DNA of 59,858 bases from Patescibacteria group bacterium (GTDB lineage: Bacteria; Patescibacteriota; UBA1384; UBA12157; JAENIV01), in NCBI GenBank assembly GCA_049515915.1, contig JBEKTP010000001.1, positions 72,855 through 132,712 on the forward strand. Reading direction: 5' to 3'. Position 1 is the stretch's first letter. Every line of letters starts with the position of its first letter. The position numbers were made by a program, and so were the translations under genes. Below are positions 491 to 59,858 of this stretch, piece after piece. Below the pieces are notes generated by a model. It had not been told where the DNA came from. It searched no databases and saw only the letters and a program-made list of their open reading frames with translations.

Positions 491-647
491 ACGCTGACTA
501 TAACACAATCATATCTCCGCGATCGACACTATAATCCCTTGATTCACGCTTGCGCGCTTCACTCGGGACCTAGGTGTTTACTCCCTAGAAAGGAGGTGAT
601 CCATCGCCAGATTCCCCTAGCGATACCTTGTTACGACTTAGCCCTCC

Positions 648-1232
648 TCACCGACTTGGCCGTGTCCCGCATTCGCGGAATTCGGGCCCCGCCGACTCGG
701 CTGGCTTGACGGGCGGTTTTTTCAACCTGTTAATGTTACCATTAACAGCCGAAACACCACGGGGCAAGCGGTTTTCCCGCACCCTCGCGGTTACTGTCTT
801 TTTTCCATCTATTCTCATTCGTTGCTGGTATTTACGAAATTTTTGTATGCCTCTTGGAGTAAGATGTTCTTTCTTGGCAACGGCCTCTACCGCCTGACAA
901 AAAATTCTAAAACTTTTTGCCTTTTTGGCCTGTAAAGGATATTTTCGAAAAAAAGGTATTAGTTTTTCTTGAAAATCTTGGAGTTTCTGGATTTTGTATT
1001 TGACATGGGGATGCCAACCATATCTTTCGTAATTCAATTCGTATATATTGCCACATCCTAATGTCTCTCGAATTCTTTCCAGAATTTGTCTGTCATCAGC
1101 CCTCAACTCGATTTCAAACTCTAATTTGATTTCTCGACGATTCTTTAAAGTTTTATGCTGACCGATACTGATGGCAAAACATCCTTCTCCATCGATAAAC
1201 CCCGCAACATAATGGGGATTAAGTTTAGACAA
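648..1232 (-). CDS. intron-encoded single-motif LAGLIDADG homing endonuclease
   Basis: YVAGFIDGEGCF motif, FEIELRADD...LGCGNI pattern; ORF track start 1403 and ATG 1259 lie in ribozyme domains, so TTG 1232 after AAGGAG is the likelier start; stop TGA 650-648 is in the 16S exon. Confidence 0.9.
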   Translation of the reverse strand: MSKLNPHYVAGFIDGEGCFAISIGQHKTLKNRREIKLEFEIELRADDRQILERIRETLGCGNIYELNYERYGWHPHVKYKIQKLQDFQEKLIPFFRKYPLQAKKAKSFRIFCQAVEAVAKKEHLTPRGIQKFRKYQQRMRIDGKKTVTARVRENRLPRGVSAVNGNINRLKKPPVKPAESAGPEFRECGTRPSR

Positions 1233-1615
1233 TTTTGCTCCTTCCTCCGACTGAAACATCGGAGTACTATGAGCGCTGCAGACTTCTTGTATTACATTAA
1301 TAGGCTTGCGCTTTACTTTACCTCGAGTATAAATAACCCTCGAGGATAATACAAGATCTCCCTTGGTCATAAAAATACCATTCTTCACTATCTCGACACC
1401 CATATATTATTGAATCATTAAGTCTGCAAATCGCTTCTCCATGCACACGGAGGATCGCGCGGATTCAATAACCTTCGAGTATTCAAGCTAGCAAATGCTA
1501 CTTTCACCCTTCGCCTAGAAAGTCACCTTTCATTAGACTGTGATTTCGCTTTTTCCGGTTTGCAGGCCGGAAAGTTGGTTTCTCAACCAACTGGCATTTT
1601 TACGGCAAGGCGCCA
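718..1615 (-). mobile_element. group II (IIC-like) intron in 16S between E. coli C1397 and A1398
   Basis: exons join as GUACAC|ACCGCCCGUC; D1 closing helix CGUAAAAAUGCCA/UGGUAUUUUUAUG; EBS1 loop GUGUGCA (1448-1442) pairs with exon end UGUACAC; IIC-type D3 motif AAGUCUGCAGCGCUCAUAGUAC; D5 with CGC triad (756-791); D6 hairpin (720-754). Confidence 0.9.
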
Positions 1616-2032
1616 GTGTACAAGACTCGAGAACGTATTCACCGTGGTGTGCTGACCCACGATTACTAGCGATTCCAACTTCATGAGGGCGAGTTGCAGC
1701 CCTCAATCTGTACTGGGGTGGTTTTTGAGAGATTAGCTTAACGTTACCGTTTTGCGACTCTTTATATCCACCATTGTAGCACGTGTGTTGCCCAGGACGT
1801 AAGAGCCACGCTGATTTGACGTCATCTGCACCTTCCTCCGTATAAACTACGGCAGTCTCCTGTGAAAATTAACACAGAATACAGGTTGCGCTCGTTGGAC
1901 CACTTAAGGCCACACTCTACAGCACGAGCTGACGACAACCGTGCAGCACCTGTCTTAGGGTTCCGTTTCCGGCACGAGTCTATTTCTAGTCTCTTCCCTA
2001 GATGTCAAGTCCTGGTAAGGTTCTTCGCTTAT

Positions 2033-2067
<35 letters not shown>

Positions 2068-2070
2068 AGT

Positions 2071-2110
<40 letters not shown>

Positions 2111-2193
2111 TCCCAGGCGGCAGACTTAACGCGTTAGCTTCGCTACAAGAAGGGTCGATACTTCTGATAGCTAGTCTGCATCGTTTACGGCGT

Positions 2194-2227
<34 letters not shown>

Positions 2228-2874
2228 ACGCTTTCGCATCTGAGTGTCAGGATAACCTAGCAAGCTGCCTTCGCCATTGGTGTTCTTCCCGATATCAACG
2301 CATTTCACTGCTACACCGGGAATTCCGCTTGCCCCTGCTATCCTCAAAGATTTCCAGTATCGAACCCCGAACCGCAGTTGAGCTGCGGGCTTTGAAGTTC
2401 AACTTAGAAATCCACCTGCATGCGCTTTACGCCCAATAAATCCGGATAACGCTCGAGCCCTACGTATTACCGCTGCTGCTGGCACGTAGTTAGCAGGCTC
2501 TTATTCTTAGGGTACCGTCACAATCGTCCCCTAAAAAAGAAGTTTACACCCCGAGGGGCGTCTTCCTTCACGCGGCGTCGCTGCGTCAGACTGTCGTCCA
2601 TTGCGCAATATTCCCAACTGCTGCCACCCGTAGGTGTATGGGCCGTGTCTCAGTCCCATTGTGGCTGGTCAACCTCTCAGTCCAGCTACCCGTCGAAGCC
2701 TTGGTAGGCCATTACCCCACCAACAAGCTGATAGGAACAAGGCCGATCTTATCCCGCCGGAGCTTTACTCTTGCGAGACTATGGGACATTAACCCACCTT
2801 TCGGCGGGGTATTTCCCGGGATAAGGCACGTTCCTTGCTATTACTCACCCGTTCGCCACGCTCTTACGAGCGTA

Positions 2875-2932
<58 letters not shown>

Positions 2933-3038
2933 AAAATTGTTATGAGAATCTAGATTGCTCTAGATAAACATCTGACTTAGATTTCTTTTATTTCTAATCT
3001 TAAAGAAAGGAGTTTTTTTACTTCTATTACCATAGAAG

Positions 3039-3721: not shown

Positions 3722-3808
3722 TGGCCCCGGCGGGATTCGAACCCGCGATATCCGTCCCGGGTCACTGCTGTGGCCCAGTAGCCTTAGGCCAAACTAGGCG
3801 ACGGGGCC
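3722..3808 (-). tRNA. tRNA-like gene 1 (87 nt), anticodon undeterminable, no encoded CCA
   Basis: acceptor GGCCCCG/CGGGGCC+A, D arm GCCU/AGGC, T arm GCGGG-UUCGAAU-CCCGC; anticodon arm CUGGG/CCCGG encloses 12 nt (CCACAGCAGUGA); 10-nt variable region. Confidence 0.75.
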
Positions 3809-59273: not shown

Positions 59274-59304
59274 GAGAAAAGGGCAAGGAAATCTTCCCTG
59301 CCCT
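59274..59304 (-). terminator. Rho-independent terminator upstream of pcrA
   Basis: AGGGCAGGGAA-GAU-UUCCUUGCCCU-UUUCUC. Confidence 0.75.
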
Positions 59305-59366: not shown

Positions 59367-59395
59367 AATTTAGCATAAAAGCACTTTTTTGTCAA
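59367..59395 (-). promoter_or_regulatory. promoter
   Basis: TTGACA-17-TAAATT with extended TG. Confidence 0.65.
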
Positions 59396-59396
59396 C

Positions 59397-59698
59397 AAAA
59401 AAGGCGCGATGGATTGCGGCCTATAATTATTTTAATATTGACCGATCCTCGCGCCTTTGTGATAAGGGCAAAGTAATTGGCTTTGTCCCTACCACAAACA
59501 TTTGTTTGTCATAAGGACTGCATTACCCTACCCGTTTTTCCTGCCGTTAGCTTGCTTTTTTTGAGGTACTTTTCGCGTTTTGTTTTTGTTTTTTTATTTT
59601 TGGATTTACGGCAGGGAGAAGATCTTGAGTATGAAAAACCCTCCTTATCTTTTCCCTAACGATTTCCCCTCCCTTATTAACGTGCGATTTGATATTAT
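59397..59698 (-). ncRNA. putative ~300-nt structured ncRNA
   Basis: strong promoter, multiple helices with minus-strand G-U pairs, 60-nt A-rich loop, terminal hairpin plus U6. Confidence 0.6.
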
Positions 59699-59704
59699 TA
59701 AAAC

Positions 59705-59733
59705 ATTATACAATAATTTTAAAGAAAAGTCAA
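59705..59733 (-). promoter_or_regulatory. strong promoter with no downstream CDS
   Basis: TTGACT-17-TATAAT with extended TG. Confidence 0.8.
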
Positions 59734-59739
59734 CCCTGC

Positions 59740-59858
59740 TGTATTCAAGAACTCAATGCAACATTATTTAATTTGTTATATTCACCCTCCAAGACCTCAC
59801 AAGGTGTTTGAAAGCCCAATATTTTTCGTGGACGATTGTTTAATTCCCAAGCAATATC
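59740..59858 (-). mobile_element. right end of an IS30-family insertion sequence
   Basis: terminal IR TGTATTCAAGAACTCAATGCAAC (59740-59762) resembles the IS30 end. Confidence 0.85.
59745..59858 (-). CDS. IS30-family transposase, C-terminal fragment
   Basis: DIAWELNNRPRKILGFQTPCEV...VALSS*, the IS30 C-terminal LNNRPRK.LG..TP motif. Confidence 0.88.
   Translation of the reverse strand, partial: DIAWELNNRPRKILGFQTPCEVLEGEYNKLNNVALSS

Follow-up and report, generated by a model that had tools for sequence, protein, structure and literature searches.

A candidate family of structured non-coding RNAs linked to dnaB and pcrA in Berkelbacteria-type Patescibacteria

A predicted RNA gene upstream of pcrA and its conserved 3′ module

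We analysed a 59,858-nucleotide stretch of DNA (hereafter the window) from a Patescibacteria group bacterium, contig JBEKTP010000001.1 of assembly GCA_049515915.1; the genome comprises 793 kb in 11 contigs and is 97.5% complete. On the minus strand at 59699–59397, upstream of pcrA, lies what is probably an independent gene for a structured non-coding RNA (ncRNA) of about 300 nt, the transcript being predicted from the sequence; the features of the RNA given below all lie on this strand. The putative gene opens with a sigma-70-type promoter (59733–59705), in which the −35 box TTGACT (59733–59728) and the −10 box TATAAT (59710–59705) are separated by a 17-nt spacer. This TTGACT-17-TATAAT element agrees with the consensus at 11 of 12 positions and is the best promoter-like site in the region. 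All homologues compared carry TTGAC-17-TATAAT or TATACT at the same distance and with similar sequence, as well as a conserved AAU near the transcription start, and it is at this AAU, at about 59699, that transcription of the window copy would begin. At the other end, a long and irregular terminator hairpin of 53 nt, GGCGCGAGGAUCGGUC...GGCCGCAAUCCAUCGCGCC (59455–59403), is followed by six U residues (59402–59397). The promoter and the terminal hairpin with its U tract (59455–59397), from which the original prediction had proposed an unannotated structured ncRNA with its own transcription unit, were both borne out, and the conservation of promoter and terminator and the covariation of helices described below lend that proposal support.

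The 308-nt RNA folds with a minimum free energy of −93.7 kcal/mol, compared with −60.2±4.8 kcal/mol for dinucleotide shuffles (z=−6.98; none of 100 shuffles equalled it). Every helix that had been proposed for it was found as written and where it had been placed, on the minus strand. No open reading frame (ORF) of at least 25 codons was found on the minus strand between a transposase gene fragment (59745–59858) and a 36-codon frame past the terminator. The earlier statement that no ORF starts between promoter and terminator is only loosely true: ATG and GTG codons are present in the 3′ half of the RNA, but the longest frame has 24 codons, and none of the frames stands at the proper spacing from a Shine-Dalgarno box or is conserved as a frame among the homologues. 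Candidate frames that start with ATA, ATT, ATG or GTG downstream of the purine boxes were rejected as coding because they are not kept as frames, and so was the MVGTKPITLPLP frame that spans the core. A start-less frame ending in KKAS-stop, which had been noticed in the A-rich loop, does exist, but the tract that holds it is conserved neither in sequence nor in frame. Likewise, GGUAGGGAC does recur in the window, at about 22985, but one extra 9-mer per 60 kb is at chance level (about 0.5 expected).

Downstream of the 5′ domain the RNA has a conserved core of three helices, P1–P2–P3 (59533–59466), defined by the RNAalifold consensus and by covariation over 33 sequences. P1 joins GGGUAGGGUAAU (59533–59522) to AUUACUUUGCCC (59477–59466), and P2 joins GUCCUUAU (59518–59511) to GUAGGGAC (59492–59485) and holds an invariant step of a C-G and a U-G pair. 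P3 is a variable hairpin, ACAAAC-AAAU-GUUUGU, within 59509–59494, and the internal loop of the core is AAAGCCA. A linker, UUAUCACAAA (59465–59456), A-rich in the family, connects the core to the terminator hairpin. RNAalifold, run on ten sequences of the dnaB/pcrA-linked paralogue (type A, see below), returned P1, a continuous P2–P3 hairpin and the terminator hairpin as three separate domains. In type A RNAs of the window's own family, and only there, CCCUUAUCAC of the linker can alternatively pair with GUGGUAGGG, and the pairs AUGG/CCAU, GUGG/CCAC and GUGG/UCAC, collected by eye, covary.

In the 33-sequence alignment, 94.4% of cells were paired, compared with 41–50% when the partners were slid; changes on both sides occurred in 39 of 42 pairs (8/8 in helix 1, 12/14 in helix 2, 2/2 in helix 3 and 17/18 in helices 4–7), and the observed values were reached by none of 500 shuffles. 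This alignment was fitted to the model, which favours the structure under test and counts against our reading. Nevertheless, the contrast with slid partners and the range of pair types remain clear. The step in P2 is nearly invariant (C-G in 31 of 31 sequences, the adjacent U-G in 30 of 31), and the flanking pairs switch, from CUUAC/GUAGG to CUAAC/GUUGG, CUAAU/AUUGG or CUUUC/GAAGG. The terminator hairpin is unusual in that its sequence is kept throughout the class, most of all in the loop, ..CGGUCAAUAAUUUAAA.UA.AUUUGGGCCGA..; this loop is AU-rich, with the family consensus CGGUCAAUAAUUUAAAGUAAUAUUGGGCCGA. The P2 step and this loop look like recognition surfaces, and we read the terminator hairpin as a putative recognition element. 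Two apparent resemblances were discarded: UAUGG to the 11-nt GNRA receptor, where the strand arrangement is wrong, and GGGUGG to the T-box, where UGG is not conserved.

Known RNA families were searched for at the locus. Against the 4,227 families of Rfam 15, the region produced no match that passed the gathering thresholds and, at E≤10, none that was credible; the best match, ncS025, is a chance match to the terminator (23 bits, with a cut-off of 46). Seven homologous loci had no Rfam match either, riboswitches and T-boxes included. ARAGORN found no transfer-messenger RNA (tmRNA) in the window; that of the genome is at C6:43417–43730 (C denotes a contig), with the tag AKPNLAPALALA. RNase P RNA (RF00010) gave no match at the RNA and has its genuine gene at C11:13939–14261 (199.8 bits). 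For 6S RNA (RF00013), neither the region nor the whole genome had a match at E≤10, and none of 162 genomes of the class had one over the cut-off.

The RNA of the signal recognition particle (SRP; RF00169) was equally without a match at E≤10, whether in the region or genome-wide, and no GGAAGCAGC-type motif of SRP helix 8 was found in a non-coding context. A six-frame translation of the genome contained no DTAGR-type GTPase, that is, no Ffh or FtsY, and PF00448 matched nothing but P-loops, one in a Mur ligase and one in a GspE-like ATPase. PF00448 was found in 1 of 162 class genomes and in 1 of 201 genomes of a phylum sample, and in all 14 control genomes. Since Ffh and FtsY are missing, we dropped the reading of the window RNA as SRP RNA. 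Loss of SRP has already been reported for Parcubacteria (Nelson and Stegen 2015, PMC4508563); its absence here is background rather than a new result, and the phylum sample extends the published one. The suggestion of a housekeeping-type RNA was half right: the RNA is no variant of 6S RNA, RNase P RNA, tmRNA or SRP RNA, but it belongs to a lineage-restricted family that is single-copy in most bacterial families of one CPR (Candidate Phyla Radiation) class.

An RNA family in one class of Patescibacteria

The window RNA is, on balance, the type A member of a previously undescribed RNA family of the Berkelbacteria-type class of the Candidate Phyla Radiation (CPR), as judged by its sequence and predicted structure. 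BLAST found homologues of the region in all 8 genomes of the same family, in 2 of the order's 3 other genomes and in one additional family; read in the sense of the RNA, they share the promoter, the AAU near the start and the terminator hairpin. The search for homologues that had been proposed to check the original prediction thus found the same layout of promoter, RNA and terminator in relatives. A covariance model of the 3′ two-thirds of the RNA (R1) matched 24 of 162 genomes of the class and exposed a second, diverged copy in every genome of the window's own order. A second-generation model built from 33 sequences (R2) matched 57 of the 162, mostly once per genome, and outside the class only a single genome in a phylum sample of 401; both models are home-made and their E-values rough. 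A metagenome scan added 26 more copies. The order of the window has two paralogues per genome.

Members of the family, 170–450 nt long, are defined by P1–P2–P3, the C-G/U-G step in P2, the A-rich linker and the terminator loop ..UAAUUUAAA..GGGCCGA, all of which the window RNA has; it scored 141.6 bits with R1 and 124.5 bits with R2. In its own genome neither model found further loci beyond the two paralogues, which argues that the terminator hairpin is not a generic terminator or repeat. The second paralogue of this genome lies at C2:73077–73375 (R1 match 73017–73181), about 130 nt upstream of guaA. It has its own promoter, CTTGACAAGCC...TATGAT, and a purine box, AACAAGGAGGGGAA; its A-rich tract is closed by the pair CUUGCCGU...ACGGCAAG, its core has diverged and its terminator hairpin is the conserved one. 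The paralogues have the 3′ module in common and differ in the 5′ domain.

The family resembles the raiA motif RNA, OLE, ROOL and GOLLD in being lineage-restricted, supported by covariation, apparently transcribed on its own and open to variable inserts. Unlike these, it has no match in Rfam 15, is smaller, is confined to one CPR class and is linked to dnaB and to DnaA boxes. An origin from a mobile element was rejected: viral contigs, phages and plasmids showed no similarity and the promoter is native.

In the window's own family dnaB, the RNA gene and pcrA stand in this order on a single strand. Other families have the RNA either after dnaB or facing it convergently, and the other paralogue type (type B) is situated between ftsK and rnj. 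pcrA of the window (59242–57389, minus strand; TIGR01073, E=4.9e-241), the syntenic downstream neighbour, carries a promoter-like element of its own, TGTTACAAT. Upstream, a 37-aa fragment at the contig end (59858–59745, minus strand) is the 3′ end of what we take, from its C-terminal motif LNNRPRK..LG..TP, to be an IS30-like transposase gene; it is not part of the RNA and had no NCBIfam match. Only a few bases separate the end of this insertion sequence (IS) from the −35 box. The relatives without it have the same promoter, and the promoter is therefore native rather than supplied by the IS. In the window's genome dnaB is on another contig (C3), followed by unrelated genes, and together with the IS abutting the promoter this indicates that the linkage to dnaB is broken here.

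Several observations were made around these loci. Between the RNA and pcrA there is a second promoter-like site, TTGACA-17-TAAATT with a TG (59395–59367, minus strand), and an 11-bp terminator-like hairpin (59304–59280, minus strand); together (59395–59274) they may form a small tandem transcript, and no counterpart of it was noticed at the same position in the relatives read. In relatives G008 and G001 (L006 at about 1660–1800, and L007) a conserved promoter-driven element, UGCUGGGAAC.GACCGACCAGCUAGA...UUUCCC, lies downstream of the type A RNA. dnaB at the relatives' loci L026, L035, L036, L047 and L048 contains an intein (a LAGLIDADG/HNS-type insert just before SIEQDADVV), and pcrA of G001 and G007 seems to carry one after VVGDDFQC.

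A proposed two-state 5′ domain and upstream DnaA boxes

The 5′ domain begins with a Shine-Dalgarno-like purine-box motif, GCACGUUAAUAAGGGAGGGGA (59685–59665; family consensus G[C/U]AC.UUAA.AAGGAGGGGA), which occurs in both paralogue types and in distant members; the purine box is complementary to the 3′ end of 16S rRNA, GAUCACCUCCUU (window 590–601). Segment X, UCGUUAGGGA (59662–59653; ACGGCA... in relatives), comes next, and then a hairpin of GGGAAAAGAU (59656–59647) and AUCUUCUCCC (59623–59614) with the apical loop AAGGAGGG (59646–59639), an equivalent of which, with the same purine-box loop, is found in relatives. Segment Y, CCUGCCGU (59615–59608), is followed by an A-rich tract of 60 nt, poor in G and U and predicted to be single-stranded (59607–59548; core AAAAACAAAAACAAAA), and this by segment X′, ACGGCAGG (59547–59540), which pairs with Y and thereby closes the tract. 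X and X′ are two copies of ACGGCAG, and Y can pair with either. The type A RNAs of most relatives have this arrangement of purine box, AAGGAGGG-loop hairpin, Y and A-rich tract closed by X′.

The pairs were counted by script over 11 RNAs: X:Y was 86% paired, compared with 32–58% when slid, and Y:X′ 87%, compared with 34–64%; X against X′ reached only 24%. These counts come from a table registered by hand, which again weighs against our reading, and because the segments were picked by eye they are supportive and not proof. Compensatory variants of Y/X′ include CUUGCCGU/ACGGCAAG, CCUUACCGU/ACGGUAAGG and UUCUUCUUAC/GUAAGAAGAA, and whole triplets X/Y/X′ change together in G011 (GGUAAGAAGA / UCUUCUUACC / GUAAGAAGAA), in G025 (ACGGU.AGG / CCUUACCGU / ACGGUAAGG) and likewise in further metagenome copies. 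In the window RNA, the best folds with X:Y and with Y:X′ differ by 2.8 kcal/mol. A pairing of the segment at the position of X′ with the 5′ strand of P2 was also considered, and was abandoned as it holds only in G001 and G007.

The complementarity of Y to the direct repeats X and X′ recalls the non-native 5′ hairpin of E. coli SRP RNA and the 1:2/2:3 logic of attenuators. Unlike SRP RNA, this RNA has no covariance-model match, and the phylum has no Ffh or FtsY beyond the rare matches to PF00448; and the switch is unconnected to the terminator, so that the RNA is not an attenuator. The stretch from Y to X′ is a variable insertion site, of about 10 nt in G009 and G011, 40–60 nt and A-rich in the window's own family, up to about 250 nt and A-rich in other families, and about 300 nt and structured in the second-copy lineage.

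We found 15 perfect DnaA boxes (TGTGGATAA) in 92.7 kb of RNA loci, where 0.7 were expected, an enrichment of about 20-fold, and all 15 lay 49–290 nt upstream of the RNA core. With one mismatch allowed, there were 1.4–1.8 boxes per kb in the 400 nt before the core, compared with mostly 0–0.4 per kb elsewhere. In metagenome loci (185 kb, partly overlapping the first set), 7 of 8 perfect boxes lay 54–202 nt upstream of the core. The boxes of single-copy families precede the promoter, and two type A genes of the window's own family (L028/L109 and L092) have a perfect box, TTATCCACA, about 11–12 nt upstream of the −35 box. Type B genes have the box as the 5′ arm of hairpin 1, and this arm is kept as UGUGGAUAA while the 3′ arm varies, which argues for a constraint at the DNA level. 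In the window copy the IS occupies the position of the relatives' box, and its insertion may have removed a DnaA operator.

These boxes suggest that synthesis of the RNA is coupled to replication. The arrangement is like that of DnaA-regulated promoters (autoregulation of dnaA, sda of B. subtilis and other clusters of DnaA boxes) in that perfect TGTGGATAA boxes are found at the RNA genes either shortly before the −35 box or within the first transcribed stretch; unlike there, the regulated product would be a structured ncRNA. An origin of replication (oriC) at the RNA gene was rejected. The genome's own origin-like cluster flanks dnaA-dnaN on C2, at about 117–118.7 kb, 44 kb from the second copy, and at neither RNA locus of the genome does the GC skew switch. 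The origin-like region (C2:115741–118714) contains the minus-strand genes dnaN (115741–116880) and dnaA (117277–118692); six perfect DnaA boxes are located between these genes or upstream of them, and rnpA and yidC adjoin. dnaB has a single perfect box just upstream (C3:84338), 9 nt ahead of its open frame and about 57 nt ahead of the point where the tblastn match starts.

Possible function and alternative explanations

The window RNA very probably belongs to a new family of structured ncRNAs that act in trans. Action in trans is suggested by a terminator that looks constitutive, by neighbours that vary, by the promoter-like element of pcrA and by the fact that no conserved competitor for the terminator stem was noticed. 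The RNA is also independent of downstream genes in its arrangement, given pcrA's own promoter, the convergence with dnaB and the position of type B between ftsK and rnj. The 3′ module most plausibly serves as an invariant handle for a partner, probably a protein, and the 5′ domain would be a bistable accessory: pairing of Y with X would form the hairpin that displays AAGGAGGG, and pairing of Y with X′ would close the A-rich tract. The purine box, as a perfect mimic of the Shine-Dalgarno sequence, and the A-rich strand might then engage the anti-Shine-Dalgarno sequence of the 30S subunit or a protein of the S1 or RRM type, and the exchange of X and X′ on Y would toggle both elements. DnaA, through the boxes at the promoter, would tune the synthesis of the RNA and couple translation or RNA metabolism to the status of replication. 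A small single-domain RRM protein encoded in the genome (C6:51200–51466; LYVGNL...KGFGFV) is a possible partner, as a putative binder of single-stranded RNA, for A-rich RNAs.

We tentatively favour an abundant ribonucleoprotein, or a titrating RNA, that engages a binder of single-stranded RNA and is tuned by DnaA. A protein sponge, the other suggestion of the original prediction, is a candidate reading. The titrating variant has a likeness to the CsrB/RsmZ and CrcZ sponges, in the GGA purine boxes in a hairpin loop, the expandable A-rich tract (10 to about 250 nt) and the strong terminator; it is unlike them in that CsrA and Hfq were not detectable at the level of BLAST, that the motifs are few and not arrayed, that the domain is missing in two relatives and that the conserved part is a different 3′ module. 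More doubtful is the wider idea of a new class of DnaA-controlled bistable riboregulators or ribonucleoproteins in regulator-poor, SRP-less CPR bacteria. In such a class the occupancy of DnaA would set the level of the RNA, the two-hairpin handle at the 3′ end would recruit a dedicated protein, and the switchable 5′ domain would capture the 30S subunit or a protein binding single-stranded RNA, tying translation capacity or RNA turnover to the initiation of replication.

Besides the fitted alignment and the registration by hand, several observations weigh against this interpretation. The type A RNAs of G001 and G007 (167 and 238 nt) have no X-Y-X′, purine-box or A-rich domain. The 5′ domain can therefore not be an essential part; a common function must lie in the 3′ module, and titration through the 5′ domain cannot be universal. 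Only some of the loci, about a quarter, have DnaA boxes, and the window's own copy is not among them. Neither R1 nor R2 accounts for the whole class, 105 of its 162 genomes being without a match to R2, through divergence or true absence. No binding partner of the RNA was identified, and tblastn with Hfq, CsrA (E. coli and B. subtilis) and E. coli ProQ gave a best E-value of 0.56, at the sensitivity of BLAST.

A base-pairing small RNA (sRNA) is an unlikely alternative to the trans-acting ribonucleoprotein. The pyrimidine-rich CUUCUCCCUGCC or GCCCUUAUC, or the AU-rich terminator loop, would pair with mRNAs, for example at Shine-Dalgarno regions, and the X/Y/X′ switch would expose or hide the seed. 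UCCC and CUCC motifs are typical seeds of Hfq-independent sRNAs, Y is sequestered alternately by X or X′, the paralogues combine a common 3′ module with different 5′ domains, and the DnaA boxes suggest a regulated regulator. However, both conformers have Y in a paired state, no conserved target came to light, and the most conserved parts are the helices and the terminator hairpin, with no obvious single-stranded seed; at 170–450 nt the RNA is, moreover, larger and more elaborately structured than typical sRNAs of the seed type.

An analogue of 6S RNA, or an abundant, DnaA-controlled RNA that binds RNA polymerase, DnaA, DnaB or the primosome rather than the ribosome, seems improbable. In its favour, the RNA is, like 6S RNA, a stand-alone, abundant-looking structured RNA of a few hundred nucleotides with a strong promoter; it is single-copy in most families, and some bacteria, such as Bacillus subtilis, have two 6S paralogues. 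As canonical 6S RNA was not detectable in the genome or in the 162 genomes of the class, the niche appears vacant; the tight synteny with dnaB and pcrA, the position of type B by ftsK and the enrichment of DnaA boxes would also fit. The RNA is unlike 6S RNA, however, in having no covariance-model match and a conserved terminator hairpin as its 3′ end, and the rod-like fold is missing: the ends are unpaired, without a 5′–3′ closing stem, and nothing corresponds to the central bubble with its long flanking helices. Furthermore, the gene is not at oriC (dnaA-dnaN, contig C2), and the synteny with replication genes may be a historical accident.

That the element is a cis-acting leader, a riboswitch or attenuator of pcrA or of other downstream genes with the conserved hairpin as its regulated terminator and X/Y/X′ as its sensor switch, is very improbable. 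The alternative pairings 1:2 and 2:3 are indeed followed by a terminator, and genes do lie downstream, pcrA on the same strand in the window's own family and guaA after the second copy. No conserved competitor for the terminator stem was noticed, however, and between X′ and that stem lie about 70 nt of stable core; pcrA has its own promoter-like element, and the site at 59395–59367 and the hairpin at 59304–59280 intervene. No riboswitch or T-box match was obtained, the downstream genes differ, as do the neighbours of type B, and in several families the RNA is convergent with dnaB and so has no gene downstream. Least credible is that the RNA engages ribosomes as a mini-ORF RNA or serves as the mRNA of a very small peptide: despite perfect Shine-Dalgarno-like boxes no conserved start codon or frame follows them, close relatives have candidate frames of differing length and sequence, and conservation is at the nucleotide level, third positions included, and tracks the helices.

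The Patescibacteria make up a large share of bacterial diversity, with tiny genomes and few known regulators, and at the level of RNA they are almost unexplored. A predicted RNA gene that is conserved from promoter to terminator in a third or more of a class, has a duplicate in one order and matches none of 4,227 Rfam families would amount to a new RNA class. Its linkage to dnaB, pcrA and ftsK, the DnaA boxes at or inside the gene and the conserved two-state 5′ domain make it tractable. We know of no DnaA-controlled structured RNA family described so far, and if the control by DnaA is real, this would to our knowledge be the first such family under the replication initiator.

Two further observations concern other RNA genes of the window. 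An 87-nt tRNA (3722–3808, minus strand; Rfam tRNA, 39 bits) was assigned a four-base anticodon (ccac) by ARAGORN. The 16S rRNA gene (590–2938, minus strand) appears interrupted: its match to Rfam stops at 1571, directly after GUCUUGUACAC, and the true 3′ end, GGAUCACCUCCUUUCU, is at about 586–603, so that an insert of about 900 nt lies near the 3′ end, within which 1238–1320 match group II intron D1-D4.

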